Sequence record: ON470606
Source of the DNA: Escherichia phage vB_EcoM-720R8
Direction: 5' to 3' (one strand)
DNA length: 34,824 nt
This document shows, one piece after another, positions 5,553-33,963 of this stretch. Position numbers and translations under genes: made by a program. The notes under the pieces were generated by a model. It did not search any database and was not told where the DNA came from. It saw nothing but the letters and a program-made list of their open reading frames with translations. Position 1 is the stretch's first letter. Every line of letters begins with the position of its first letter.

Positions 5553-6743
5553 TTAATTGCTGTTAACCGAGGTGACCAGACTTGCCAGGTATCTTGAAGT
5601 AATACGCTGGCGCAGGGTCAGGTTTTCGAGAGGAGGCACCGGTGTATAGTCGTAGTCGATATACAGTTTTCCGGCCTTGAGGGTTTCCGCATCGTTGGCT
5701 TCTTCACTGAACCAGCATGTGCCATCCACGATATAACCGTTGTTTTTCAGTTCGCGGAATTTGGCATTGATGCCATCAATGATGTCGCGAATCAGCGTTG
5801 CGGTGATGGGCTTATCAATAGCCCACATGTGCGCCTCAGCCATCGTGTCGGCCAGTACCTGCGCGGTACGTGTGTAGCTTTCAAAGAGGAAAAGTGGGTC
5901 ATCGGAGCAGGTACGGTTACCCCAGAAACGGAAACCGTCGCGGCGAACCAGCGTTGTGACGCCTGCCTCGTTCAGCAGGTCAGCATCAGTGCCAGACTTC
6001 TGCAAATCCCAGAATACAGATGCGCTGATGCCGGTAACACCGTTTACCCCGACGTTGGACAGCGTTTTATGCCAGCCCTGCTCCTGGTCGATTTTGGCAC
6101 GCAGCCCCAGCGCACGGGCGGTGGCATACGCGGTGGCGGTGGTACTGGTGACCGTATCCCATGCAAGGAAATCCGGCCAGATGACCATCAGCTCACGCTG
6201 ACTGAAATTCTGACGGTAGGCTTTTGCCTCGGAAATGGTTTTACAGCCCCATGCGCTGATATACCCGAAGGCATTCAGTTCCTGGCATACCGATGCCAGT
6301 GCAACCGCCACCTCTTTGGTGTCCAGTCCCGGTACGCCGAGAATGCGCGGTTTAACGCCGGTAACCGACTCTGCGCCCATCAGGGCTTTCAGTCCGGTGT
6401 ACTGACCGTTTTCGTCAGTGGTGCCGATGATATTGGAAACGGTCTGCGCGAGTTTCGTTTCTTCGTCGTCGCCGGTGCCGTCTTCCACGCGCACGACAAC
6501 GGTGACCGGTTTTGACTGGTCAGCGATGGCCTGCAACGATGCCGCCAGCGTGCCTTTTTTACCGGCCTTTGCAATCGCGCTCTGCACATTGGTGATCAGC
6601 ACCGGTTTATTGACGGGGAAGGTTTCCGCATCCGCATCGCTGGCCGTGCAGACCATGCCAACAATGGCGGTGGATACGGTGGAAATGACGCGGGTGCCGT
6701 CGTTAATCTCCAGCACCTGCACGCCGTGATGATAGTCACTCAT
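5553..6743 (-). CDS. FI: Contractile tail sheath protein FI
   Basis: 396-aa ORF, ATG at 6741..6743, first gene of the FI-FII-E-T-U-D block. Confidence 0.9.
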   Translation of the reverse strand: MSDYHHGVQVLEINDGTRVISTVSTAIVGMVCTASDADAETFPVNKPVLITNVQSAIAKAGKKGTLAASLQAIADQSKPVTVVVRVEDGTGDDEETKLAQTVSNIIGTTDENGQYTGLKALMGAESVTGVKPRILGVPGLDTKEVAVALASVCQELNAFGYISAWGCKTISEAKAYRQNFSQRELMVIWPDFLAWDTVTSTTATAYATARALGLRAKIDQEQGWHKTLSNVGVNGVTGISASVFWDLQKSGTDADLLNEAGVTTLVRRDGFRFWGNRTCSDDPLFLFESYTRTAQVLADTMAEAHMWAIDKPITATLIRDIIDGINAKFRELKNNGYIVDGTCWFSEEANDAETLKAGKLYIDYDYTPVPPLENLTLRQRITSRYLASLVTSVNSN

Positions 6744-7017: not shown

Positions 7018-8139
7018 TTAACTTGGTAATAAAGATTGCCACCACTTATTCAAAATGGAATGGGTCATAAAGTTGAATGTATTTAAATTAATTGGCACAT
7101 CTTCATTCAACCACGTTCCACCTAAGGTTGAACATGCTCTCGCTCGTTCAGCAATATACCCATCCCATACTTCAGGATAGGAACACATCGGCTCAGGAAA
7201 TGGTTGTCCTCCATGCAATGCCTTAGAACGGTAGTTATATATTTTTTTAAAAGTTGTTGATAGCGATTCTTTTCCCCAATCAATTCTTCCTACTTTTGGC
7301 CTCACTTGAGGTTCATCTGGAAGGAAATACAGGCAGAAATCCACAAACTTCTTTGTCGCCCCAAATGAATCTTTAAACTCATTAGCAATAATAGAGATTA
7401 AATGTCTAAATTCATTGGTATCTAATTTTTCATATAATTCAGGCTTGGCATGTTTAAATCTTTCTTCTTTAGACGCATTGGATTTTGCCCATTGATTAGC
7501 CGCACATTCTAGGGCTGACACCATCAATAGCCAACTCATATTTGGAGATGACTCGCATATCCATAATGCATTTTGATAGCTTCTGGCTGCTCTAATTAAA
7601 TGGTTGAAATTCTTTTCACTTAAGAGATGTAAATTGTTAAGCTCTTTAAGGTTAGTTATATCAATTTCTTTGATAGCATTAGGAACTATAGGTTTGTTAT
7701 GTTTAAACTCTAAAACGGGAGGAAAAGAACTCTCCGCTTGGATCCTTCCGAAATCACCTGTGTAGTAATCATAGTGACGAGTAATTGACCCAGCATGAAA
7801 ACGGACACCAAGCAGTAAACTTGAAAGCGCAGCTATTTCATCATTATACCATCCACCATGATAATCCTTTGTATGACTCTGAGAACTAGAAAGAATCATA
7901 TTATTTAAGTCACTATACCACTTTGTGCGCACTGTAATTGAAGATGCAACGGTGGATTGTTTGGTTATCCTGGGTAGCATATTCAGAAAACAATAAACTG
8001 AATCATCATCAACCGCCCCAATTGGTTGACTATCTGAATAGAGAGAAAACTCAGTAATAGACCGTAAGTTACTTCCTTGATGTGCCATCTTTAAGTTTTT
8101 GTAAGACAGTAGACTTGCATACATATGATTATTGGGCAT
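7018..8139 (-). CDS. Hypothetical protein, AT-rich accessory (moron) gene at the P2 Z/fun hotspot between G and FI; candidate anti-phage or exclusion function
   Basis: Long uninterrupted ORF in a visibly AT-rich segment flanked by GC-richer phage genes; same orientation as the late genes. The ORF track starts at a GTG (8145); the first ATG is at 8139. No motif I recognise. Confidence 0.6.
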   Translation of the reverse strand: MPNNHMYASLLSYKNLKMAHQGSNLRSITEFSLYSDSQPIGAVDDDSVYCFLNMLPRITKQSTVASSITVRTKWYSDLNNMILSSSQSHTKDYHGGWYNDEIAALSSLLLGVRFHAGSITRHYDYYTGDFGRIQAESSFPPVLEFKHNKPIVPNAIKEIDITNLKELNNLHLLSEKNFNHLIRAARSYQNALWICESSPNMSWLLMVSALECAANQWAKSNASKEERFKHAKPELYEKLDTNEFRHLISIIANEFKDSFGATKKFVDFCLYFLPDEPQVRPKVGRIDWGKESLSTTFKKIYNYRSKALHGGQPFPEPMCSYPEVWDGYIAERARACSTLGGTWLNEDVPINLNTFNFMTHSILNKWWQSLLPS

Positions 8140-8357
8140 TTTCACTAGATAAAATTTTAGTAGATAGTAGGAGAGAATCTAAAGGATTGTGTTTATAAAC
8201 GCAAACAGTTGAGGACTCATTCCCCACAAGTGAGCAGCTCCCCACAGATTTATGCAGATAGATGGCAACAATGTCCGCTCCTAGCACAGAGCGGACTGTC
8301 AGATTAGGCTTTACTCTGTGCCATAGATATGTAAGCTCCCACCAGAGCTCATACAAC

Positions 8358-8885
8358 TTATTGCGGCATTTCCGGCCATTCAGGATTTGCAGGATCCACA
8401 CGACTGACCAGAACGCTGTAGCGTTCCCATGCTTCCAGTCGACTGCGCTCCTCATCTGTTGCCATATTCAGCCTGACAGCGCGCTCCAGCGGCAAAATCA
8501 CGGATTCGGTTTCGGAAAGTAACGCGGCCTTTTGTGATTCTGCCTGTTGTTGCTGTTCGTCTGCCGTATAAATCCGCTTAATCACGGCACCATCCTTAAA
8601 CATCCATTTACCTGAGTCATCAGCACGTCGGTTGGCGGTAATATCAGGAACCTCGACAACGCTAAAACCTTCAGGGTTGAGCGTTGAAGCATCTCTGGTG
8701 ATGCCGACAATTATATTATTCTCGTCGTAAACAATCTTTATCGTGTCTTCCTGAAAATTACTTACTTCCTCATACCAGTTTTTTCCCTCTTCGGACCATA
8801 ACCAGATAACATCAAAATTTTTTGTCAGTTGATATTGGGCAACAGTTTTTGGATTACCCGCAGTAATATTTTTTAAATGCTGCAT
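8358..8885 (-). CDS. G: Tail fibre assembly protein G
   Basis: 175-aa ORF immediately downstream of H, ATG at 8883..8885. Confidence 0.85.
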
Positions 8886-8888
8886 AAA

Positions 8889-11624
8889 TTACACCTGTGC
8901 GACGTTATACCATGTGCCATTGATGTATTTTTGTATTGGTCTGAATACTGCGGGGTCATCACCATCGACTTCACCGACAATACCAAGCCCGGTAATTACG
9001 TGCCCTGCTTTCTCATACACCACCCCTTTCTGCATGGTCTGGACAACACGTGTGCCAAGTCTGACATCTCTCACATAGCGGGAATCAAAGTTACCGTAAT
9101 CCGAGGGATTAACACGCCCCGTAATATTTATGGTTTTATTACTTTGAACGCTTCCGGAGACAAAGCGCATAACATGGACGCTATTAGCATAAACATCCAG
9201 ATTACCATCACCATTTTGTTTAAAGCCCGTGTCATTATCACCCAAAACAATCGAATTACCGCCAAGAGCACTGGATGTTCCTATACCCAGAGCACCATTC
9301 AATTGACCACCAGATAACGGCAGTGCACCGACATCTCCCGCTGTAGGTTTTCGCGTTGTGGTATAAAACTCAGACCAGTCAGCCTCGAATCCGTAACCGT
9401 CACGAGCAGAACGATAAAAAATACCACCGTTCTTATAATTAACGCGAAACTGGGCGGCGGGACAACTTCCTTCACCGATATTAAAATGAAGAATTAACGT
9501 TGATGCCCCACCAATAGTTGCGTTATAGGCTCCGCTACTCCAGTTCCATCCAACGGCTTTATCATTCGCAACGGTGTCTCCTGTTTTTCCTGAAGCAAAT
9601 GCACCAATATTTTTCGGCGTCAGGTTAATATCTGATGTTCCATCAAACGAAACGTTATTAATTTTACGGGCTGTTTTCAGCTTTGTTGCTGTCGCCGCAT
9701 TGCCGGACAGTTCACCAGAAAGGCCAGCACTGAATGTCTGTTTCGCGCCCCATGTCTGGGCTTCGTCAATGATTGGTACTCGTCTTGTTGTGATCGTGCG
9801 GCTTCCCGGATTTCCTGAAATGCGCACCATAAAAAAGCGGTAGTTGGCTTTACTTACAGTGCTGCGCCATACATGCATTGAGCGCCCCGTACCGGAATCA
9901 TCACTCGGACCAACTGCGATGTTTATCAGGTTGCCATCAATGACGCCCCAGTCCATACCGTCGGGAATGTTGGTCATATTATCAAGCCGAACGGTTATCA
10001 GACTGCCCGGCACAAAATCGTAGGTCTGCCAGTCCAGAATGGATAGTTTTGCCACTGCGCCACCGATGCCCAGATTCAGAGGCAACGAAAAGGAGTTATA
10101 TACTTCTCGCCATTCGGTCCATTTGCTCCCGGCGTAGACGCGCTCAAAAGTGCGTCCCTGTGTGGTTTCTGATTTCCCTGTGGTTGTGTAACGCTGCCAG
10201 ACAGACACACCATCAAAACGTCTGATTACTTCCAGTATCCCAAGTAGTGTCGCGCCAACGGTGTCCAGCATCGGACCGTTTGTTGCCTTTCCTGTAACAC
10301 TGTAAATACCGGGGTCGGTTAGAACATTTAAATCACCTTCGTAATAACGACTCTCTGACTGATGACCGACTCTTAACCACGGTTCCCACTGCGGATTTGA
10401 TGCATCCCAGCTTGCCGCAAGGCAGCGGACATACATATTTCCACTGCGAGTGGTATAACGTTGCGTTCTTCCATAATTCCCGCCTTCGAGGATCTCAAGC
10501 GTCCCCTGAGCAAAGCCGCCTTCCTCTGGATAATTGCGTTCATATGAAGCTATAGCCGAACTACTGTTACGCCATAAACCAAGATGTTCGGCGGCTCCAA
10601 GCGTATTCAGGTCTATAGTCGTACTCAAAGGGCGGGTAGCTGATTGAGTGTGACGCCATACGCCCCACGGACCATCAGTGCCATTCCACTTATTGGCGAG
10701 TTTACGCATGTATACATTGCCGTCTCTCGTGATAAAGCGTTGCGTGCCTGCAAAATTGCCGGCAGCAAAAACCTCAAGCACACCGACAGCATTATCTTCC
10801 GGGAAATTTTTCTCCAGTGTTGCGTTAGTTGAGGTAGCTTTAGACCAGATCCCCAGATAAGCCTTAACTGGACCAAATGTATTCAGATCAGCATCAACCG
10901 GCATTTCGCCGTTGTTTTTCATAAACGTCAGGCTGGTAACGCCAACATTGTCCAGAAAAGCTGATTTATCCTGGATATCTGCACCATTCTGATTTTTCGC
11001 CAGACGTGAATTTGCGTTGTCATTCGCAGCCTTGACCGCTTTTGGCGTTGCCGCCAGTTTTTCACTGGTGCTGTTTGTTGCGCTGCTTAACTGGGTAAAA
11101 CCTTTTTCTGTCAGCGTGGCGTCAGGATGGCGGCGGGACTGCTCATGTTCTGCGATTTTGTCATCGACGTAATCCTGCGTCGCCATCACTGTGCTGGCAT
11201 CAATACTCAGCTCCACAGACGCCACGTTACTGACAATAATAACCATGCGGCAGGTCTGCGCACGCCCGGAGCCTTCAGCGAGTTCAGGCTTATAGCTTTC
11301 TGCCATGTTGGCGACCGCAATCAGTGTTCCGGCATCGTCATACAGACCAAGCTCACGCATCCAGAATCCGCCCACTTCGGGCGGTACAACCAGTTCAGCC
11401 ACGATATAGTTTTTATTCTTGTTATCCACGCTGACTTTATTCAGAGCGTGACGCCAGACCTCATGCACCAGTTTCGTCTGACCGGCATCCGGCACCGGCA
11501 ATTTGCCATTACCGTCACCCACGGCCATTGCAGACAGGGTTACTTTTTTCCCGCCGGGGACAGTGGCGGCTGCCAGCTTTGCGGCTCCGGCAGTAGTGAT
11601 AACGGTTTTAAATTTCGTGCTCAT
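8889..11624 (-). CDS. H: Tail fibre protein H (911 aa, longer than the P2 H I recall; mosaic distal part)
   Basis: N-terminus MSTKFKTVITTAGAAKLAAA...; Gly/Ser/Thr-rich repeats typical of fibres; 3' half noticeably more AT-rich than the 5' part. Confidence 0.85.
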   Translation of the reverse strand: MSTKFKTVITTAGAAKLAAATVPGGKKVTLSAMAVGDGNGKLPVPDAGQTKLVHEVWRHALNKVSVDNKNKNYIVAELVVPPEVGGFWMRELGLYDDAGTLIAVANMAESYKPELAEGSGRAQTCRMVIIVSNVASVELSIDASTVMATQDYVDDKIAEHEQSRRHPDATLTEKGFTQLSSATNSTSEKLAATPKAVKAANDNANSRLAKNQNGADIQDKSAFLDNVGVTSLTFMKNNGEMPVDADLNTFGPVKAYLGIWSKATSTNATLEKNFPEDNAVGVLEVFAAGNFAGTQRFITRDGNVYMRKLANKWNGTDGPWGVWRHTQSATRPLSTTIDLNTLGAAEHLGLWRNSSSAIASYERNYPEEGGFAQGTLEILEGGNYGRTQRYTTRSGNMYVRCLAASWDASNPQWEPWLRVGHQSESRYYEGDLNVLTDPGIYSVTGKATNGPMLDTVGATLLGILEVIRRFDGVSVWQRYTTTGKSETTQGRTFERVYAGSKWTEWREVYNSFSLPLNLGIGGAVAKLSILDWQTYDFVPGSLITVRLDNMTNIPDGMDWGVIDGNLINIAVGPSDDSGTGRSMHVWRSTVSKANYRFFMVRISGNPGSRTITTRRVPIIDEAQTWGAKQTFSAGLSGELSGNAATATKLKTARKINNVSFDGTSDINLTPKNIGAFASGKTGDTVANDKAVGWNWSSGAYNATIGGASTLILHFNIGEGSCPAAQFRVNYKNGGIFYRSARDGYGFEADWSEFYTTTRKPTAGDVGALPLSGGQLNGALGIGTSSALGGNSIVLGDNDTGFKQNGDGNLDVYANSVHVMRFVSGSVQSNKTINITGRVNPSDYGNFDSRYVRDVRLGTRVVQTMQKGVVYEKAGHVITGLGIVGEVDGDDPAVFRPIQKYINGTWYNVAQV

Positions 11625-20488: not shown

Positions 20489-22261
20489 ATGACCATCACC
20501 ACAGACACCACTCTTTTACACGACCCGCGTCGTCAGGCGGCGCTGCTGTACTGGCAGGGGTTTTCCGTGCCGCAGATTGCCGCCATGTTGCAGATGAAAC
20601 GCCCGACGGTGCAGAGCTGGAAACAGCGCGACGGCTGGGACAGCGTTGCCCCCATCAGCCGTGTCGAAATGAGTCTGGAAGCGCGGCTGACCCAGCTCAT
20701 CATCAAACCGCAGAAAACCGGCGGTGACTTCAAGGAAATTGACCTGCTGGGACGCCAGATTGAACGACTGGCACGGGTAAACCGTTACAGTCAGACCGGC
20801 AACGAGGCAGACCTTAATCCGAACGTCGCTAACCGCAACAAAGGCGGGCGTCGCAAACCGAAAAAGAATTTTTTCAGTGACGAGGCCATCGAAAAGCTGG
20901 AGCAGATTTTCTTTGAGCAGTCTTTCGAATATCAGTTGCACTGGTATCGCGCCGGGCTTGAGCACCGCATCCGCGATATCCTGAAATCCCGCCAGATTGG
21001 CGCGACGTTTTATTTTTCCCGCGAGGCGCTGCTGCGCGCCCTGAAAACCGGCCATAACCAGATTTTTCTGTCGGCCAGTAAAACGCAGGCGTATGTGTTC
21101 CGCGAATACATCATCGCCTTTGCCCGGCTGGTTGACGTTGACCTGACCGGTGACCCGATTGTCCTGGGCAATAACGGCGCAAAACTGATTTTTCTCGGCA
21201 CCAACTCCAACACCGCGCAGAGCCATAACGGCGACCTGTACGTCGACGAGATTTTCTGGATCCCGAATTTTCAGGTACTGCGTAAGGTGGCATCAGGTAT
21301 GGCCTCACAGAGTCACCTGCGCTCGACCTATTTCTCCACCCCGTCCACGCTGGCGCACGACGCCTACCCGTTCTGGTCTGGTGAGCTGTTTAACCGGGGA
21401 CGCGCCAGCGCCGCTGAACGCGTGGAAATCGACGTCAGTCATAACGCCCTTGCCGGTGGGCTTCTCTGTGCGGACGGTCAGTGGCGGCAGATTGTCACCA
21501 TTGAGGACGCGCTGAAAGGCGGCTGCACGCTGTTCGACATTGAGCAGCTCAAACGTGAAAACAGCGCCGACGATTTTAAAAACCTGTTCATGTGTGAATT
21601 TGTTGACGACAAGGCGTCGGTGTTCCCGTTCGAGGAGCTGCAACGCTGCATGGTCGACACGCTGGAAGAATGGGAAGACTATGCGCCGTTTGCTGCCAAT
21701 CCGTTCGGCTCCCGCCCGGTATGGATTGGTTACGACCCGTCACACCGTGGCGACAGCGCCGGATGTGTGGTACTGGCACCGCCGGTGGTGGCCGGTGGCA
21801 AATTCAGAATACTTGAGCGTCACCAGTGGAAAGGCATGGACTTTGCCACTCAGGCGGAATCCATCCGCAAACTCACCGAAAAATACAACGTCGAATACAT
21901 CGGTATTGATGCCACCGGCCTCGGTGTCGGCGTGTTCCAGCTCGTGCGCTCGTTCTATCCCGCCGCGCGCGATATCCGCTACACGCCGGAAATGAAAACC
22001 GCAATGGTGCTCAAGGCAAAAGACGTTATCCGCCGTGGCTGTCTGGAATATGACGTCAGCGCCACCGACATCACCAGCTCGTTTATGGCTATCCGAAAGA
22101 CCATGACCAGCAGCGGACGCAGCGCCACCTATGAGGCCAGTCGCAGCGAGGAAGCCAGCCACGCCGACCTCGCCTGGGCGACCATGCACGCCCTGTTAAA
22201 TGAGCCACTCACCGCCGGTATCAGCACTCCGCTGACATCCACCATTCTGGAGTTTTACTGA
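20489..22261 (+). CDS. P: Terminase large (ATPase) subunit P
   Basis: 590-aa product from the ATG at 20489; the ORF-track entry starts at a TTG ten codons upstream. Stop overlaps the Q start (TGATG). Confidence 0.85.
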   Translation: MTITTDTTLLHDPRRQAALLYWQGFSVPQIAAMLQMKRPTVQSWKQRDGWDSVAPISRVEMSLEARLTQLIIKPQKTGGDFKEIDLLGRQIERLARVNRYSQTGNEADLNPNVANRNKGGRRKPKKNFFSDEAIEKLEQIFFEQSFEYQLHWYRAGLEHRIRDILKSRQIGATFYFSREALLRALKTGHNQIFLSASKTQAYVFREYIIAFARLVDVDLTGDPIVLGNNGAKLIFLGTNSNTAQSHNGDLYVDEIFWIPNFQVLRKVASGMASQSHLRSTYFSTPSTLAHDAYPFWSGELFNRGRASAAERVEIDVSHNALAGGLLCADGQWRQIVTIEDALKGGCTLFDIEQLKRENSADDFKNLFMCEFVDDKASVFPFEELQRCMVDTLEEWEDYAPFAANPFGSRPVWIGYDPSHRGDSAGCVVLAPPVVAGGKFRILERHQWKGMDFATQAESIRKLTEKYNVEYIGIDATGLGVGVFQLVRSFYPAARDIRYTPEMKTAMVLKAKDVIRRGCLEYDVSATDITSSFMAIRKTMTSSGRSATYEASRSEEASHADLAWATMHALLNEPLTAGISTPLTSTILEFY

Positions 22262-23295
22262 TGAGCAAGAAAAAAGGGAAAACACCGCGACCTGCGGCAA
22301 AAACAATCACCGCCAGCGCCCCGAAAATGGAGGCATTCACCTTTGGTGAGCCGGTGCCGGTACTCGACCGGCGTGACATTCTGGATTACGTCGAGTGCAT
22401 CAGTAACGGCAGATGGTATGAGCCACCGGTCAGCTTTACCGGTCTGGCAAAAAGCCTGCGTGCCGCCGTGCATCACAGCTCCCCGATTTACGTCAAACGC
22501 AATATTCTGGCCTCGACATTTATCCCGCATCCGTGGCTTTCCCAGCAGGATTTCAGCCGCTTTGTGCTGGATTTTCTGGTGTTCGGTAATGCGTTTCTGG
22601 AAAAGCGATACAGCACCACCGGTAAGGTCATCAGACTGGAAACCTCACCGGCCAAATATACCCGTCGTGGCGTGGAGGAGGATGTTTACTGGTGGGTGCC
22701 GTCCTTCAACGAGCCGACAGCCTTCGCGCCCGGCTCCGTGTTTCACCTGCTGGAGCCTGATATTAATCAGGAGCTGTACGGCCTGCCGGAATATCTCAGC
22801 GCCCTTAACTCTGCCTGGCTGAATGAGTCGGCCACGCTGTTCCGCCGCAAGTATTACGAAAACGGCGCTCATGCCGGATACATCATGTACGTCACCGATG
22901 CCGTGCAGGACCGCAACGATATCGAAATGCTTCGCGAAAACATGGTTAAGTCAAAAGGCCGCAATAACTTTAAAAATCTGTTTCTCTATGCCCCGCAGGG
23001 GAAAGCCGACGGCATTAAAATTATCCCGCTCAGTGAAGTGGCAACGAAGGACGATTTTTTTAATATCAAAAAAGCCAGCGCCGCTGACCTGCTGGACGCG
23101 CATCGCATCCCCTTTCAGTTGATGGGAGGCAAGCCGGAGAACGTCGGGTCGCTGGGTGATATTGAGAAAGTGGCAAAGGTCTTTGTCCGCAATGAGCTTA
23201 TCCCGTTACAGGACAGGATTCGGGAAATAAACGGCTGGCTCGGTCAGGAGGTCATCCGCTTTAAAAACTACTCACTGAACACTGACAACGACTGA
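22261..23295 (+). CDS. Q: Portal protein Q
   Basis: 344-aa ORF, ATG at 22261, translationally coupled to P. Confidence 0.9.
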   Translation: MSKKKGKTPRPAAKTITASAPKMEAFTFGEPVPVLDRRDILDYVECISNGRWYEPPVSFTGLAKSLRAAVHHSSPIYVKRNILASTFIPHPWLSQQDFSRFVLDFLVFGNAFLEKRYSTTGKVIRLETSPAKYTRRGVEEDVYWWVPSFNEPTAFAPGSVFHLLEPDINQELYGLPEYLSALNSAWLNESATLFRRKYYENGAHAGYIMYVTDAVQDRNDIEMLRENMVKSKGRNNFKNLFLYAPQGKADGIKIIPLSEVATKDDFFNIKKASAADLLDAHRIPFQLMGGKPENVGSLGDIEKVAKVFVRNELIPLQDRIREINGWLGQEVIRFKNYSLNTDND

Positions 23296-23464: not shown

Positions 23465-23483
23465 GTGCTTTCCCCGCCTCGCC
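23465..23483. other. cos site (19-nt cohesive-end sequence, reverse complement of GGCGAGGCGGGGAAAGCAC)
   Basis: Exact match to the P2 cohesive-end sequence as I recall it; sits between Q and the tin/old-position cargo as expected. A 40-N gap follows at 23499..23538. Confidence 0.7.
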
Positions 23484-23751
23484 CGCCCGCTTCATGGGNN
23501 NNNNNNNNNNNNNNNNNNNNNNNNNNNNNNNNNNNNNNTGCAGTTACATAGATACTATGGATCCGCACCAGTCCTGACCGCACGCAGCCTGAACGGACAT
23601 CCCCGACGCATGCAAAAACATTCACTTGTTGCATGCAACGGCTTATTTAATGACAAATCAACTTAAATTTACAAAATCCACAGGTATGGATACTTTGCGA
23701 ACATGATAGGCTTACGAGAATTATCGTGCCTGTTTTTGAACGGAGAAAGTT

Positions 23752-24693
23752 ATGCAAGGTGAAGTTGACGAACAGCAACCAAATGAGATTATTTCGGAGT
23801 TTGGATACTATCCAGTAGAAGTTAACATTGAGACTGAACAATTTTCTTTGCGTACTTTACCCGGTCTTATTGAGAAAGTGGAACGTATTAACAATGATAA
23901 AAACGTTGTTAATGGTTGGATATACCCTGGGAATCGAAAGGTATATAACCTTAATGGTGACACATGCACAATGCCTTATAGTTACCGAGTATTCGGCATG
24001 CCCAAAACGCACACACTAAAATTAAAAAACACATCCTCGTTAGAAACTCTCAACTTTGTTGTGTGGTGCCTCTCTTTTTTCAAGGGTATAAGATTGACAA
24101 CCACTGACGCTGGTTTTCTTGATGCAACCACTATCAAGCCCACTAAGTTAACCGACTTTATTCTCGTTGGATGCTCTGAAAAAGAAGTAATAGAGCTAGC
24201 ACTTAACTATATAAAAGACAAACAAAAAGATGATCGCTCCATTAAAAGAATAGCTGCGGTGATACACTCCCTATTCCTGTCACATAACCCACTATACCTT
24301 TCCTTTGAGAAATTCCAGTATCTTTATATGGCTCTTGATTGCTGTTTTGCTATAGCATGGGATGAAAGGGATAAAGTCATTAAAGAGAAAAAACCATCTC
24401 ATCAAAATAGAGTATATTGGACGTGCGAAAATTACGGTGTAAAAATCCCGTCATGGGCAACAGATGAATGTAATGTTTCAGTTATACGCAATGATAATTT
24501 TCATGAAGCCATTTTTAATGGGCAACCGCTTGGTTTCTCTAGTATCAATGATTGTCAATATGGTAGCGATATATTGCTACAAATGCAGGCTCTGGTATGT
24601 CGTCTACTAGCGGCAATACTCTCTGTAAATGATCGTAAATATATCGCATCTACAATCAGCTCGATAGAGTACCATTCATTAAAATTAACTTAA
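23752..24693 (+). CDS. Hypothetical protein (313 aa), AT-rich accessory gene next to cos at the P2 old/tin hotspot; candidate defence or exclusion gene
   Basis: ATG at 23752 preceded by GGAG at 23742..23745; AT-rich; no Walker A motif, so not an OLD-family ATPase; no family recognised. Confidence 0.6.
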   Translation: MQGEVDEQQPNEIISEFGYYPVEVNIETEQFSLRTLPGLIEKVERINNDKNVVNGWIYPGNRKVYNLNGDTCTMPYSYRVFGMPKTHTLKLKNTSSLETLNFVVWCLSFFKGIRLTTTDAGFLDATTIKPTKLTDFILVGCSEKEVIELALNYIKDKQKDDRSIKRIAAVIHSLFLSHNPLYLSFEKFQYLYMALDCCFAIAWDERDKVIKEKKPSHQNRVYWTCENYGVKIPSWATDECNVSVIRNDNFHEAIFNGQPLGFSSINDCQYGSDILLQMQALVCRLLAAILSVNDRKYIASTISSIEYHSLKLT

Positions 24694-25012
24694 TGCTAAC
24701 GCCTCACTTCGCTCGTTGTTCAACCCCGCCAGCCTGAAAACAAGTTTCACGACTGGCGGCGTTCTCTATCGTCTGCGTGGTGGTGGCGCAACTCTGGACT
24801 GACCGATATAGTTAAACCGCCCGTAATTATCCCGGACTATTTCGGCACACCCGACCAGCTCGTCAGGCGTCAGATTTTCGTTGACCATAATCTGCTGTAA
24901 ACGGTGAACAATGGCCATCAACCTGACACTTTTGGTGTTATATGTGGTATCTCACATGAGATTACTGACCAAGGTGCATCTTGGTTGACTCATTTCATAT
25001 CCATCCACACCA

Positions 25013-25693
25013 CTACATCTTTATTGCATATTTATTAAAAGACGCCCAGTTCAATAAAAAAACATTATTCATATACCATTCAATATGATTTTTATTTTTA
25101 GATTGACTGTCAAGTAGCACACAAACATCAACCTGTTTATCAATCAATTTTGCAATATAAACCACAAACTCAACACTCGAATATCTCTTTGTGCCTAGCA
25201 AATATAATATTTCATCTGACAAATAATTAGACTCATGTGAAAAGACATTATCATTTAACAAAATCAACCCGCCAATCGAGTCATTTAAATCCAAAACATC
25301 CTTTGTTGCATTTATTTGCTTATTAGCTTCCTTAACTATCTTTGTTTTAATATTTTCATAAGCAAAGTTCATTATATCATTTCTAAATCGCTTTGAGTCT
25401 GGGTGTCTTTTTATCAACTCTTCTAAATGAATAGCACCATGCCAGTTTTTTGCAAGCCAACTATCAGTTTTAACCAACTCATTCAGTTTATCATTGACAT
25501 TCTTGACCCTGTCAGAAAAAAGACTTTTCATCTCCAAAATTATCTTTTTATTATCAATAAGATAATCTGCCATCTTGCGATTCTGACCATCCTTCATCCG
25601 GAACTTATGATGAATATCATCAATAGAAATCCCTTTTTCATGCTCAACAATGAATCTCTTAACATTGTTTTCTAATTCGCTGTATTGTTTCAT
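25013..25693 (-). CDS. Hypothetical protein (226 aa), AT-rich accessory gene at the P2 tin position; candidate defence or exclusion gene
   Basis: ATG at 25691..25693 with a purine-rich stretch upstream; 27 nt downstream of the DUF2158-like ORF on the same strand; no family recognised. Confidence 0.6.
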   Translation of the reverse strand: MKQYSELENNVKRFIVEHEKGISIDDIHHKFRMKDGQNRKMADYLIDNKKIILEMKSLFSDRVKNVNDKLNELVKTDSWLAKNWHGAIHLEELIKRHPDSKRFRNDIMNFAYENIKTKIVKEANKQINATKDVLDLNDSIGGLILLNDNVFSHESNYLSDEILYLLGTKRYSSVEFVVYIAKLIDKQVDVCVLLDSQSKNKNHIEWYMNNVFLLNWASFNKYAIKM

Positions 25694-25720
25694 ACTTTCC
25701 CCCGTGAATTTTATTATGAT

Positions 25721-25912
25721 TCACTTACGTGGACGACACAGCATACCACTTTTACTCTCTGCTATTTCCAGTAAATCAATGGAGAATGACTCCTCGTGCA
25801 AAACTCCTTCTTTATCATGCCAAATACATTTCGCATGAGTTTCAGTAGAGTCAGATACAGTCATTTTAAATCCACCGCTTTTCAAACAAACAACATCTGC
25901 AGGCTTTAACAT
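25721..25912 (-). CDS. Small DUF2158 / YodC-like protein (63 aa from the internal ATG)
   Basis: MLKPADVVCLKSGGFKMTVSDS...CIWHDKEG... fits the LKSGGP-MTV signature I associate with DUF2158; GGAGA sits 5 nt before the ATG at 25910..25912. The ORF-track entry runs to 25996. Confidence 0.55.
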   Translation of the reverse strand: MLKPADVVCLKSGGFKMTVSDSTETHAKCIWHDKEGVLHEESFSIDLLEIAESKSGMLCRPRK

Positions 25913-26038
25913 TTTTGTCTCCAACATTTTTAAGTAATGCATTATAACATAATGATATTGACGTAGATTTAATGCATGCAACCATATAAAAAACAATCAA
26001 TTACAGTCAAAACTACTTATACTGTATAGATGAGATCC

Positions 26039-28318
26039 TTACTCAAATTGATGCCAGAATCCCGACCACTCATCAGCGACCGGATACGTGAATTTTTTCC
26101 CGTCATAATTTACGGTCGCGCCACGCGCCAGCGCCTCAAGCTCCCATCGCTGCGGCCTGATACCGTTCTGAGCAAGGTCAACGCGGATACGGGTGATTTG
26201 CAATCGTTCAGACCGGGTCAGTCTGGCCGATGGCGCTATTTCATGTGGTTTTAACGGGCTTCCGTTTCTTTGCTGACGATTTGGTGTTTTCAGGCCGTGT
26301 TTTAATGCACCCCTGAGCGTCCTCACGACCTCCGGGTCATTCCATTCGATAACACCGTCATCAACCAGATTTAGCACTGCTGCGGCGTGTTCAGAAGGTG
26401 TGGGAGCCGGTAACGAAGTATCACCACCGGTGAGCTTTCCACAGTTATTGACAGGACTCCGAGGCGCGGCGATGCCGCTTTTTAAAGTCAAAGGCTCAAC
26501 GACCGGAACTTTCGGCACAATGCGCCAGTCCGTCGTTCTGGTGATATGAATATGACGCGCGCCGAGATGCGGCGCGTAAATGCCGACCACTCTCTCGACT
26601 TCTTCCTCGTACTCGTTAACGTCATCCGACGGGCTACGGGCGACTCTGACAGTCTGACAATCGCGCGGGACATTTGCCCCACCCTGCGCGCTGATATACA
26701 ACGCAAAATCACCACTGTCTGCGGCGGCGCGTGCAGCCTCGACGCGCTCGTCAAACTCATCAGCAATGCTGACGCCGCGCGGCAATTTGCGTAGTTCACG
26801 GTAAGCCCCCATTGTCGGCAGGCCAACCGTTTTAAATTGCGGGATGCGCCACGTTGACGCCCATGCGGTAACAGCCGCTGCAGTGTCTTTCAGCGGCCTG
26901 CCGGTGTCGTTATCGAGCTGACCATCCAGTGCATAGCCGTCGATGTTTTTTGAAATGTATTTCGCGATATATCCCGCAGCACCGCCCCGGTTAAGGTGTT
27001 TTGCCTGAAAACGGTTTCGCGCGGCTCCTCTTTCGTCACCATCCTCTTTGAGCGCATAGCGACGCATGATTTCGATAATCTGGTTACGCTGGCGTGGATT
27101 ACAAAAAAGCATCATATGCCAGTGCGGCGTTCCGTCGTGGTGTGGCTCGACGACACGCAAACCGTAGACCTGTAAATCATTATCCTTGAATGCCGTGCGC
27201 ATCAGGCTCCAGATGCGGCAGAGATAACGCTGCGCATCCTTTGGATTAAATGCCTCATCGTTCCAGCCGTGATTAAGCTGAACGGTTTTACTTTCGCCTT
27301 TTCTGACCTGACGAGTCGGGTGATACTTTGACGGCGCGGTCAGCGTGATAAACATCCCCACATCACCCTCTGCGGCGGCGTAACGCTCAATACCGGCAAT
27401 GGTGTTCATCAGCTCCATCCGGCGAATTTCAGGATTAGAAATACTGCCCATCACCTTACTGATAAGGTCGATGCGCTCGCCGGTTTCCCTGTTTTCAAGG
27501 TCACACGATTTAAGAAATTCCAGATTTGCCTGGCGGCGCGCACGCACATCACGAATGGCGTGTTTACTGGCATAAGGAGAACGGTCTTTATTGACCTCCC
27601 CGACAGCTATCAGTAACGCTTCATGCCAGCGCATACGCTGGCCTTTAAGCTGATGAGTCCACCACTCATCGTTAAACAGACGGGCAATGGCAGAATATGC
27701 CTGCCTCGTGGTCATCTGCCCTTTACGGTATTTTTTCCAGTAGAGCGGGGAAATATTGAAAGCACGTGCAGCGCCAGCAACATGACCATAGAGGTGAGCC
27801 TGCGCCTCATCCGTAAACAGCGATTCTTTTTCGCCATGCGCATCCACCCAGGCATCGCTGAGTTCCTCATACATCATGAAAAGCTGCGATGAGATACGGG
27901 CAGCAAACTTTTTCAGCTCCTTGTCATTCATTCCCGGCAGGCGCGCATAGTGGTCACGCTCTGCCAGAAACAGCAACGACGCGTCGGTGTTCATTTCATG
28001 GCGCTGATTCACGCGCTCAATGCGCGGCCATAAACGACGCTGAAAAGTGGATGTGAGGAAATAAAACCCGTGCACCGGGCTTTTATTGCGCCGGATGTAG
28101 TCATAGCGTGAAGTAAACAGCGAACGCAAAAAGTAAGGCAGGCGGTTAATCGTGGATAAAACACCTTGCACCTGACGCATCTCGTCACGTGTAAGGGGTC
28201 TTTCGCGCCCGACGGCCTCGCGTGGCGCGTTCCATGCATAAGCACCGGTAAACGCCTTACCGGTGCCTGCAGCAAATGCTGACGGAGGGACAAAACGCCC
28301 GGAGGCTTTAACGGCCAT
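26039..28318 (-). CDS. A: Replication initiation protein A (rolling-circle nickase)
   Basis: 759-aa product from the ATG at 28316..28318 (MAVKASGRFVPP...), which overlaps the upstream ORF stop; the ORF-track entry starts at a TTG 14 codons earlier. Confidence 0.85.
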   Translation of the reverse strand: MAVKASGRFVPPSAFAAGTGKAFTGAYAWNAPREAVGRERPLTRDEMRQVQGVLSTINRLPYFLRSLFTSRYDYIRRNKSPVHGFYFLTSTFQRRLWPRIERVNQRHEMNTDASLLFLAERDHYARLPGMNDKELKKFAARISSQLFMMYEELSDAWVDAHGEKESLFTDEAQAHLYGHVAGAARAFNISPLYWKKYRKGQMTTRQAYSAIARLFNDEWWTHQLKGQRMRWHEALLIAVGEVNKDRSPYASKHAIRDVRARRQANLEFLKSCDLENRETGERIDLISKVMGSISNPEIRRMELMNTIAGIERYAAAEGDVGMFITLTAPSKYHPTRQVRKGESKTVQLNHGWNDEAFNPKDAQRYLCRIWSLMRTAFKDNDLQVYGLRVVEPHHDGTPHWHMMLFCNPRQRNQIIEIMRRYALKEDGDERGAARNRFQAKHLNRGGAAGYIAKYISKNIDGYALDGQLDNDTGRPLKDTAAAVTAWASTWRIPQFKTVGLPTMGAYRELRKLPRGVSIADEFDERVEAARAAADSGDFALYISAQGGANVPRDCQTVRVARSPSDDVNEYEEEVERVVGIYAPHLGARHIHITRTTDWRIVPKVPVVEPLTLKSGIAAPRSPVNNCGKLTGGDTSLPAPTPSEHAAAVLNLVDDGVIEWNDPEVVRTLRGALKHGLKTPNRQQRNGSPLKPHEIAPSARLTRSERLQITRIRVDLAQNGIRPQRWELEALARGATVNYDGKKFTYPVADEWSGFWHQFE

Positions 28319-28583
28319 ATGAGCCAAAAACCTCTGAACAACGCTTGCTGAGTTGCTCAACCTGCGCGTTTAAATCAGCAAAAGACTTTGCGCTTCCGGT
28401 CAGAATATCGTGATGCATCAGGCCGGAAACGAGCTGGCTTAATTTCGGGTAATAACCAACCACCGCCAGCCATTCCTGACCGGCGTTTTTACCGCTTTCC
28501 GCTCTCTTTTTCTCGTGGAGAATAAACTGAAAGCTGTCACTGGTAACGACATAACGTTCGCCAATTTCAATACGAATACTCAT
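28308..28583 (-). CDS. Hypothetical early-operon protein (91 aa)
   Basis: ORF translationally coupled to A (stop overlaps the A ATG); sits where P2 has small early ORFs of unknown function. Confidence 0.6.
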   Translation of the reverse strand: MSIRIEIGERYVVTSDSFQFILHEKKRAESGKNAGQEWLAVVGYYPKLSQLVSGLMHHDILTGSAKSFADLNAQVEQLSKRCSEVFGSYGR

Positions 28584-30883: not shown

Positions 30884-31897
30884 ATGGCAATCAAAAAACT
30901 CGATGATGGTCGATATGAAGTGGACATCCGCCCTACTGGACGTAACGGAAAACGCATCCGTAGGAAGTTTGATAAGAAAAGCGAAGCTGTCGCTTTCGAA
31001 AAATACACGTTGTACAACCACCACAATAAAGAATGGCTATCAAAACCAACAGACAAACGACGTCTGTCGGAACTGACACAGATCTGGTGGGATTTAAAGG
31101 GTAAACACGAAGAGCATGGGAAATCTAATCTTGGAAAAATTGAAATCTTCACAAAAATAACGAATGACCCATGCGCATTTCAAATCACGAAATCCCTTAT
31201 CAGCCAGTACTGCGCCACCCGAAGAAGTCAGGGTATTAAACCTTCGAGTATCAATCGTGATTTAACATGTATTAGCGGCATGTTTACAGCCCTGATTGAA
31301 GCGGAGTTATTCTTTGGTGAGCACCCTATCAGAGGGACAAAGAGGCTTAAGGAGGAAAAACCAGAAACAGGCTATCTCACACAGGAAGAAATTGCCTTAC
31401 TGCTTGCAGCACTTGACGGCGACAACAAAAAGATTGCGATTCTTTGCCTGAGTACAGGAGCACGTTGGGGAGAAGCAGCTCGTTTGAAAGCAGAAAATAT
31501 CATCCATAACCGCGTCACGTTTGTTAAAACGAAAACAAACAAACCACGCACCGTCCCGATCTCAGAGGCTGTTGCCAAAATGATCGCGGATAACAAACGA
31601 GGTTTTTTATTCCCTGATGCTGATTACCCTCGCTTCAGACGAACAATGAAAGCAATAAAACCGGATTTGCCAATGGGGCAAGCCACACATGCACTAAGGC
31701 ACAGCTTTGCCACTCATTTCATGATTAATGGAGGAAGTATTATCACGCTACAACGGATACTAGGTCACACGCGGATTGAGCAAACTATGGTTTACGCTCA
31801 TTTTGCGCCAGAGTACCTTCAGGACGCCATTTCTCTTAATCCGCTAAGAGGTGGTACTGAGGCCGAGAGTGTCCACACAGTGTCCACAGTAGAGTAA
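30884..31897 (+). CDS. int: Tyrosine integrase
   Basis: 337-aa ORF, GGAGGG upstream; C-terminal catalytic region with HALRHSFATHF...LGHTRIEQTMVYAHF (R, H-x-x-R and Y). Confidence 0.9.
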   Translation: MAIKKLDDGRYEVDIRPTGRNGKRIRRKFDKKSEAVAFEKYTLYNHHNKEWLSKPTDKRRLSELTQIWWDLKGKHEEHGKSNLGKIEIFTKITNDPCAFQITKSLISQYCATRRSQGIKPSSINRDLTCISGMFTALIEAELFFGEHPIRGTKRLKEEKPETGYLTQEEIALLLAALDGDNKKIAILCLSTGARWGEAARLKAENIIHNRVTFVKTKTNKPRTVPISEAVAKMIADNKRGFLFPDADYPRFRRTMKAIKPDLPMGQATHALRHSFATHFMINGGSIITLQRILGHTRIEQTMVYAHFAPEYLQDAISLNPLRGGTEAESVHTVSTVE

Positions 31898-33063: not shown

Positions 33064-33963
33064 ATGGCAGAATTTCCCGCCAGCTTACTGATTCTTAATG
33101 GCAAAAGTACTGACAATCTACCCTTGCGCGAAGCAATTATGCTGTTGCGTGAGGAAGGAATGACGATCCATGTGCGGATCACCTGGGAGAAAGGCGATGC
33201 TGCACGATTTGTAGAGGAGGCCCGGAAGTTAGGCGTCGCAACAGTGATTGCCGGTGGTGGCGATGGCACCATTAATGAAGTTTCTACGGCATTGATTCAA
33301 TGTGAGGGGGATGACATACCCGCGCTGGGAATTTTACCATTAGGAACTGCCAATGATTTTGCCACTAGTGTAGGGATTCCTGAGGCACTGGATAAGGCGC
33401 TGAAACTGGCAATTGCCGGTAACGCCATTGCGATAGATATGGCGCAGGTCAACAAACAAACCTGTTTTATTAATATGGCGACAGGCGGGTTTGGGACGCG
33501 TATTACCACAGAAACGCCGGAAAAATTAAAAGCCGCGCTGGGTGGCGTCTCTTACATCATTCATGGCTTAATGCGCATGGACACTCTGCAACCGGACCGT
33601 TGTGAAATCCGCGGTGAAAACTTTCACTGGCAAGGTGACGCCCTGGTCATTGGTATTGGTAACGGGCGTCAGGCCGGTGGCGGTCAACAATTGTGCCCGA
33701 ACGCATTAATTAACGATGGCTTGCTGCAACTGCGCATTTTTACCGGCGATGAAATTATTCCGACTCTCGTATCAACCTTAAAATCTGACGAAGATAACCC
33801 GAATATTATCGAAGGTGCTTCGTCGTGGTTTGATATACAAGCCCCACACGAAATCACTTTTAATCTTGATGGCGAACCGTTGAGTGGGCAAAACTTCCAT
33901 ATTGAAATACTTCCGGCGGCGTTGCGTTGTCGATTACCACCAGATTGTCCATTGTTGCGTTAA
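33064..33963 (+). CDS. yegS: Host lipid kinase YegS (diacylglycerol-kinase catalytic-domain family)
   Basis: 299-aa ORF beginning [16 protein letters not shown] with a GGGDGT nucleotide-binding motif; matches E. coli YegS by recall. Confidence 0.85.

Follow-up and report, generated by a model that had tools for sequence, protein, structure and literature searches.

The 34,824-nucleotide (nt) sequence of Escherichia phage vB_EcoM-720R8 analyzed here (record ON470606, one strand; referred to as the window) reads as a P2-like prophage, in which an AT-rich block of cargo genes lies between the cohesive end site (cos) and replication gene A. Comparison with related genomes indicates that this block represents two independently assorting modules and not one island. 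With a probability of roughly 0.6, we interpret these as two independent accessory modules that would both encode defence nucleases, namely an abortive-infection RNase and an exclusion DNase, inserted in the hotspot between gpQ/cos and gpA. Module 1 (approximately 23651-24695) consists of ORF313, an open reading frame (ORF) on the plus strand, and module 2 (approximately 24954-26038), in which the orf91 gene of P2 has been replaced, consists of a small DUF2158 ORF followed by ORF226, both on the minus strand. An anti-phage role of the cargo as such is, in our analysis, reasonably likely.

The hotspot is delimited on the left by the 19-nt cos (23465..23483), which is identical to the reverse complement of P2 cosR (NC_001895, 33575-33593), and on the right by gene A (26039..28360, minus strand; Pfam Phage_GPA, E=1.3e-122). 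GC content is 30-40% over 23600-26000 versus 52-60% in the flanks, and climbs to 44-48% at approximately 24500-24950. A preliminary description of this DNA, prepared from its letters alone, had called the latter segment a spacer, and the positions it gave for cos, ORF313, ORF226, the DUF2158 ORF, the AT-rich block and the GC-richer spacer are all reproduced by ORF calling, the GC profile and the identity to cosR. It had also assigned the block to the variable tin/old (gpA-gpQ) hotspot of P2, in agreement with the P2 record and with Rousset 2022 (PMC9122126), where this hotspot is documented as a reservoir of defence systems. Its view of a single cargo island of convergent genes has to be abandoned, as a backbone spacer separates two modules that assort independently.

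The spacer (24696..24953) was recognized as conserved backbone DNA by comparison with complete E. coli genomes and P2-like phages. When the island was used as query, matches of any kind were obtained in 529 of 5426 complete E. coli genomes, and most of these correspond to the spacer, typically at 80-95% identity. The spacer is also matched in many P2-like phages, including Wphi, and is absent from the reference P2 record. On its minus strand, it holds a remnant of 51 amino acids (aa; 24766..24921; phrog_11386, E=1.6e-27, profile positions 18-69) of a backbone ORF of 68-69 aa, which has lost its 5' end at the junction with the ORF226 module, where comparison of translations (locus L003, 1254-1460; locus L005, ~3500-3720) locates an in-frame stop; the Wphi copy of the same ORF is frameshifted. 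The 51-aa ORF is labelled 'meiotically up-regulated 80 protein' by RefSeq/PGAP, apparently a name transferred spuriously. With this backbone DNA in between, the block falls into two cargo slots.

Independent assortment is apparent from related elements. Yersinia phages vB_YpM_46 and VB-YPM-4 carry ORF313 and the spacer at 98.8% identity, and behind A these phages have an orf91-type DUF3850/ASCH gene and the 68-aa ORF in intact form, without ORF226. In other E. coli P2-like prophages, ORF313 alleles (69-84% identical) are accompanied on the A side by DinI-like genes, or by an ImmA/IrrE gene together with a 199-aa gene. ORF226, in turn, is found without ORF313: in a Citrobacter P2-like prophage, A precedes DUF2158 and a 75%-identical ORF226 homologue, and the cos-side gene that comes next, of 250 aa, is unrelated; on IncFII plasmids of Pantoea, the ORF226 homologue (64%) stands alone, without DUF2158. 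In P2, A is followed by orf91 and then by tin and old, the latter two being transcribed from a start beside cos toward A. ORF313 lies in the old/tin slot and in the old/tin orientation, and DUF2158-ORF226 lies in the orf91 slot downstream of A; tin and old are both cos-proximal in P2, in a slot filled here by ORF313 only. Among the complete E. coli genomes, the ORF313 family occurs in 93 (~1.7%), with 51 full-length copies by megablast.

We then focused on the proteins themselves. ORF313 (23752..24693, plus strand) is a single-gene, two-domain protein of 313 aa, whose confident AlphaFold2 model (pLDDT 82.9, pTM 0.84) is divided into a conserved N-terminal alpha/beta domain (~aa 1-158; 23752-24225) and a C-terminal helical domain (~aa 160-313) that, by model and motif, is HEPN-like. 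A word-indexed search retrieved 260 homologues, nearly all of 300-325 aa, from Enterobacteriaceae, Aeromonas, Pseudomonas, Acinetobacter, Stenotrophomonas and others. When 40 homologues at 43-78% identity, drawn from several gammaproteobacterial genera, were aligned, 52 columns proved invariant, including R246, N247, H251 and E252 (RNxxxHE). The HEPN signature has been described as a conserved Rx4-6H in which the arginine is usually followed directly by a polar residue (N, D or H; PMC3710099), and the ORF313 motif conforms to that definition. The codons of the predicted catalytic motif, R246-N247-D-N-F-H251-E252 (Rx4H, polar residue after R), are located at 24487..24507 on the plus strand. Based on the invariant motif and a moderate fold match, the C-terminal half of ORF313 is probably a HEPN domain. 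One cluster of homologues, in UniRef only, bears the name 'Apea-like HEPN domain-containing', and for the N-terminal domain a Foldseek search of the PDB retrieved no solved structural analogue. When the family profile was compared with PDB sequences, a weak local match was found between ORF313 residues ~243-283 (~24478-24600) and residues 4-45 of E. coli ribonucleotide reductase R2 (E 0.02; 'KNDQLKEPMFFGQPV' against 'RNDalHEalFFdePlG'); this was judged a probable chance match, as the catalytic R and H are not shared.

The distribution of ORF313 was evaluated by scanning one genome per species. Homologues were found in 77 species-representative genomes, mostly of Alpha-, Beta- and Gammaproteobacteria with a few from other phyla, and those at 32-53% identity extend to other proteobacterial classes. 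No conserved neighbour or partner gene is present across these loci. Recurrent neighbours are genes of mobile elements (P4-type integrases, type IV secretion system genes, resolvases) and genes linked to defence or conflict, namely Gabija in an integrative and conjugative element of P. aeruginosa, DUF4238 in Acinetobacter, and, elsewhere, an AbiU2-type HEPN protein, HSDR_N+STAND NTPase, HD-CE+HATPase, TIR, KAP NTPase and MTES_1575 restriction endonuclease (REase) genes. Within one to two genes on either side, PADLOC matches include type I and type IIG restriction-modification (RM) systems, MADS, Hma and PDC-S49. An architecture consisting of the N-terminal domain alone was considered and discarded, as its three matches are pseudogenes that are truncated or disrupted by insertion sequences (IS). 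Decayed ORF313 homologues, cut by an IS transposase, truncated or internally deleted, do occur in a few genomes (L094, 486-1911; L095, 9983-10507; L096, 9974-10522). In Sphingopyxis (L054, 10958-12085, and related loci), the ORF313 homologue is followed by a 375-aa protein with a sub-threshold AbiU2-type HEPN match and an 'RNKSIAH' motif, such that two HEPN-like genes stand side by side.

In the second module, ORF226 (25013..25693, minus strand) is a predicted PD-(D/E)xK nuclease with a helical insert at aa 63-133. Close homologues number 26 and are restricted to Enterobacterales, and a profile search of 1.8 billion representative proteins yielded 348 relatives. In 65 relatives, down to 17% identity, D43, E54, K56 and Q126 are the sole invariant columns, and the recurrent pattern aD[YF][LF]x(5-6)hhhExK corresponds to the PD-(D/E)xK signature. 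The codons of the predicted catalytic D43 ... E54-M-K56 (D...ExK) were checked on the sequence at 25526..25567 (minus strand). The AlphaFold2 model (pLDDT 92.2) places D43 before strand 44-46 and E54 and K56 in strand 51-58, within a restriction-endonuclease-like alpha/beta core that superposes on solved nucleases. ORF226 itself has no match in Pfam, NCBIfam or PADLOC, where several relatives likewise received no family assignment, nor in the PDB by sequence; two relatives match REase_DpnII-MboI at the motif, below threshold. Altogether, motif and predicted fold argue with good confidence for membership in the PD-(D/E)xK superfamily.

The surroundings of ORF226 relatives were recorded as well: one lies directly downstream of a prophage CI-type repressor with DUF4238 alongside, one has a type I RM system and an MTES_1575 REase as neighbours, and a third shares its island with Mrr_cat and GIY-YIG genes and with DUF4145, a HEPN family. 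Moreover, the coding region of a 346-aa relative overlaps with the stop of a gene of the DAC type (diadenylate-cyclase-like; L109, 3163-5696), which suggests a signal-activated nuclease effector. In some distant relatives (P0163, P0166, P0185, P0204), an ORF226-like domain is fused to Mrr_cat and a SEC-C motif. The preliminary description had proposed the two large ORFs as candidate exclusion or defence genes, a suggestion made more plausible by the nuclease-type domains and by the occurrence of homologues on mobile elements and among defence genes.

The small ORF upstream of ORF226 (25721..25912, minus strand; 63 aa from ATG, as called by PGAP in a 99.8%-identical E. coli genome) had been described as DUF2158-like, and its match to Pfam DUF2158 (PF09926) indeed exceeds the gathering threshold (E=1.2e-7; 31.8 bits, cut-off 22.3 bits); a longer form of 91 aa from TTG would span 25721..25996. 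No function is described for DUF2158 in the searchable literature. ORF226 begins 27 nt after the DUF2158 ORF, with a ribosome-binding site (RBS) GGAGA before the DUF2158 ATG and an RBS GGGGGAAAG before ORF226, and the two genes are probably co-transcribed. Upstream of the DUF2158 ORF there is an exact extended -10 promoter-like element, TGTTATAAT (25941..25949, minus strand), whose conserved counterpart in the 77%-identical Citrobacter locus (L020) reads TGATATAAT at the corresponding position, amid neighbouring bases that differ. The conserved extended -10 element and the RBSs are consistent with a separately promoted operon of two genes that does not depend on the early operon; a second promoter candidate, TTGACT-18-TATGGT, is found at 26010-25981 (minus strand). 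P2-like prophages of E. coli and of Citrobacter retain DUF2158 and ORF226 as a pair, and DUF2158 is absent beside the Pantoea plasmid homologue.

From gene structure, conservation, motifs, predicted folds, modular assortment and genomic contexts, we infer a scheme for the activities, substrates, triggers, lysogen expression and anti-phage phenotype of the two modules. ORF313 would be made in the lysogen as an inactive (latent) HEPN RNase, and its N-terminal domain would sense a cue from the infecting phage and switch the RNase on. The activated protein would then cleave host RNA, most likely at tRNA anticodon loops, and this cleavage would stop translation and abort the infection; tRNA is proposed as the substrate by analogy with ApeA, DARNA/PD-T7-3, HepS and PrrC. 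ORF226, on its part, would cut incoming or replicating foreign DNA, with the small DUF2158 protein acting as its putative regulator or restraint. A broader proposal, held only tentatively and at somewhat below even odds, is that ORF313 founds a widespread family of single-protein HEPN sensor-effectors whose conserved N-terminal domain would recognise a phage cue new to HEPN defences, and that DUF2158-ORF226 is a new two-gene nuclease defence in which regulation of the nuclease would be the first function ascribed to DUF2158; the breadth of the family in that proposal is of several proteobacterial classes, plus a few matches in other phyla.

The scheme proposed for ORF313 follows that of ApeA, DARNA (PD-T7-3), HepS, PrrC and RloC. 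As in these systems, a single polypeptide would combine a HEPN Rx4H RNase with a non-catalytic domain, without a partner gene, and be carried on prophages and defence islands; they are latent RNases triggered by infection, and the same logic is predicted here. Nevertheless, ORF313 is distinct from each of those compared. ApeA has ~580 aa, a helical N-terminal domain, a Mid domain and a split HEPN, whereas ORF313 differs in length and in its alpha/beta N-domain and has no PADLOC match at E<=1, such that an identification as ApeA was rejected. DARNA (PD-T7-3) has an N-terminal HEPN domain (R117x4H122) and a C-terminal domain binding single-stranded DNA, whereas the ORF313 motif is at 246-251, in the C-terminal half, and PADLOC again gives no match; this identification was also rejected. 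HepS is shorter than 250 aa, as compared with the 313 aa of ORF313 with its N-terminal alpha/beta and C-terminal HEPN arrangement.

Similarly, ORF226 differs from type II/IIS REases such as BsmI by lacking a cognate methyltransferase. No methyltransferase gene was found between cos and gene A, nor adjoining the close ORF226 homologues, and a type II RM system was discarded on these grounds. Unlike NucC and the Cap4-type effectors of CBASS, ORF226 has no SAVED or other recognised sensor domain, and unlike CdiA-CT nuclease toxins it has no delivery domain; the helical insert at aa 63-133 is family-specific and sets it apart from all of these nucleases.

With regard to the P2 old-tin cassette, the block has in common the cos/gpQ-gpA slot, the AT-rich cargo, and the position and orientation of ORF313 in the old-tin transcript. 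Homology to Tin is lacking: the preliminary description had left open whether the 226-aa protein is a diverged Tin, and profile comparison with P2 Tin (NP_046797) by hhalign rules this out for ORF226 (probability 0.2%) as well as for ORF313 (0.07%). Its statement that neither large ORF has a Walker A motif, and that neither is an OLD-family ATPase-nuclease, was confirmed by pattern search and Pfam, with no [AG]x4GK[ST] and no AAA or TOPRIM match in either protein; the Walker A, ABC-ATPase and TOPRIM features of Old are absent. In addition, the second module here is in the orf91 slot and not in the tin/old slot.

Several observations weigh against the interpretation of the cargo as two independent defence nucleases. 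The motif loop of ORF313 (aa 247-264) is the least confident and poorly defined part of the model; a Foldseek search of the PDB with ORF313 returned nothing significant, HepT appearing only at E 4-6; and ORF313 is unmatched in Pfam, NCBIfam and PADLOC, with no curated HEPN family at E<=10 for any of the 40 homologues. The flanks of ORF313 homologues at eight to nine genes' distance on either side are equally rich in defence genes (Avs3, CBASS, type I/III RM) and thus provide no usable control, and for this reason the defence association of ORF313 is qualitative only and is given here without an enrichment figure. Upstream of ORF313, no convincing -10/-35 pair was found that would mark its promoter. 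Furthermore, a nuclease without methyltransferase and an RNase are also expected of toxin-antitoxin or addiction modules. Lastly, DUF2158-ORF226 was detected in 27 of the 5426 complete E. coli genomes and all 27 also have ORF313, on account of which a functional link between the two may be conceivable.

That co-occurrence speaks for a quite improbable alternative, in which ORF313, DUF2158 and ORF226 would form one multi-gene system with an interdependent RNase and DNase, for example a sensor-effector pair or two jointly controlled effectors. It includes loci that combine an ORF313 allele of only ~85% identity with an ORF226 of 99% identity; moreover, all eight ORF226 loci in IMG/VR carry the full island, and the TGCATGCAAC element (see below) is upstream of both units. 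However, ORF313 is found without ORF226 in the Yersinia phages, in ~24 E. coli genomes where its copy is full-length and at every one of the 77 species loci that lie outside P2, and ORF226 without ORF313 in Citrobacter and on the Pantoea plasmids. The two units are also convergent, with backbone DNA between them, and we attribute the co-occurrence in E. coli to tight physical linkage and common descent. An unlikely, though somewhat better, candidate is a role in addiction or in the phage life cycle, where ORF313 would be a toxin or host-shutoff RNase, and DUF2158-ORF226 a toxin-antitoxin pair or a nuclease of P2 replication or recombination expressed with the early operon. HEPN and PD-(D/E)xK domains are common in toxins (HepT, CdiA-CT), DUF2158-ORF226 is co-oriented with gene A and directly downstream of it, at the place of P2 orf91, and a small upstream ORF followed by a nuclease resembles the layout of type II toxin-antitoxin systems. 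Against this, ORF313 lacks both an RNA repeat array and a conserved antitoxin gene next to it, ORF226 occurs without DUF2158 on the Pantoea plasmids, the module has its own conserved promoter-like element, and both families are found mostly outside phages, in islands rich in defence genes, unlike what a P2-specific life-cycle role would predict.

It is also possible, and in our estimation similarly doubtful, that ORF226 is a modification-dependent (type IV-like) nuclease cutting only modified phage DNA (such as that with hydroxymethylcytosine or its glucosylated form) and not a triggered or partner-restrained effector, with DUF2158 being unrelated backbone filler. ORF226 is a stand-alone nuclease of the REase fold with no methyltransferase in the island or beside its homologues, some of its relatives are fused to Mrr_cat, a type IV domain, and Tin, the P2 occupant of the hotspot, targets T-even phages. 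However, no domain binding modified bases (SRA, YTH, winged helix) was detected, and ORF226 consists of the nuclease core and the helical insert only; DUF2158 stays paired with ORF226 in relatives at 75-77% identity; and the longer relative overlapping the DAC-type cyclase gene points to signal-activated effectors. That the ORFs are hitch-hiking or decaying cargo without current function is highly improbable: some ORF313 homologues are IS-disrupted or internally deleted and the neighbouring small backbone ORF is truncated, but both ORFs are intact and have good RBSs, the 52 invariant positions of ORF313 hold across 40 homologues, and the catalytic triad of ORF226 is kept in 65 relatives. In addition, published work on the gpA-gpQ hotspot describes turnover without pseudogenisation as the norm there.

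The preliminary description had further suggested that the cargo proteins are possibly new families, which is correct in part. They have been on record since 2005: GenBank AM157369 ('Bacteriophage P2-EC67 proviral ORF226 and ORF313', plus ORF73; 92.9% nucleotide identity) contains the same three genes in another P2-like prophage, all annotated as hypothetical. PHROGs 5937, 20483 and 3261 match the three cargo proteins end to end, all with 'unknown function', and the RefSeq accessions of the three proteins appear in Table S5 of Rousset 2022 (PMC9122126), which comprises 18,150 gpA-gpQ loci in 1,650 arrangements; these accessions are not in that paper's table of tested systems. Neither 'P2-EC67' nor the cargo accession numbers were found in the main texts of the searchable literature. 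The superfamilies (HEPN, PD-(D/E)xK) are known as well; what stands is that no curated family covers ORF313 or ORF226. The domain assignments of these two proteins are new relative to the AM157369 and PHROG records, and each protein stands for a new family, or a new architectural variant, of an already known kind, located at an established hotspot. The same hotspot was reportedly treated by Odegrip in 2006 as the 'TO region' (old-tin) of P2.

If the interpretation as two defence nucleases is correct, the known repertoire of immunity genes carried by prophages would grow by two uncharacterised families. Among single-protein HEPN RNases of abortive infection, ORF313 would represent a fourth architecture, whose putative sensor domain is of a new kind, and ORF226 would be a compact methyltransferase-less nuclease of the REase fold, with relatives beside CI repressors, RM systems and a cyclase gene. 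The view of P2 hotspots would be unchanged and a specialist would not be surprised, given that unknown genes at these positions are already assumed to be defence-prone. The value lies in two concrete, testable candidates and in the two independently exchanging slots: the gpA-gpQ 'hotspot' is really a pair of slots, cos-side and A-side (the orf91 position), each swapping its cargo independently of the other, which matters for the automatic delimitation of systems.

Some features surrounding the modules were also recorded. Directly after cos there are 40 masked N (23499-23538), and the segment from cos to the region upstream of ORF313 is not fully readable. Next comes a stretch of cos-proximal backbone ahead of the cargo (23540..23650); the first ~98-127 nt of the island query, counted from 23540, match P2-like prophages without ORF313 at 93-98%. 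This stretch contains a perfect 12-bp palindrome, GTTGCATGCAAC (23628-23639), of which an exact half-copy, TGCATGCAAC, is located upstream of the DUF2158 ORF (25973-25982). A shared operator formed by GTTGCATGCAAC and TGCATGCAAC is possible from the sequence; half-sites counted with one mismatch allowed are not above chance. A GCAACGRC stretch upstream of ORF313 is shared with the P2 old promoter region. Beside ORF313, no RNA antitoxin, repeat array or known RNA family was detected with TRF, a repeat finder and Rfam. A hairpin 30 nt past the ORF313 stop (24722..24763, plus strand; -19.2 kcal/mol, z=-1.9), with no clear T-run, is a weak terminator candidate.

Elsewhere in the window, a portal gene (22261..23295, plus strand) was identified by Pfam scan on the other side of cos. 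A second low-GC cargo (~37% GC), a 375-aa ORF at 7018-8145 (minus strand) with zero Pfam or PADLOC matches, is placed between a tail-sheath-like gene (5553-6743) and tail-fibre genes (8358-11624), which is the position of the P2 Z/fun hotspot. The right end of the prophage is marked by an integrase gene (Int_N and Phage_integrase; 30884-31897), and the gene for a YegS-type lipid kinase that comes after it (DAGK_cat and YegS_C; 33064-33963) is presumably host DNA.

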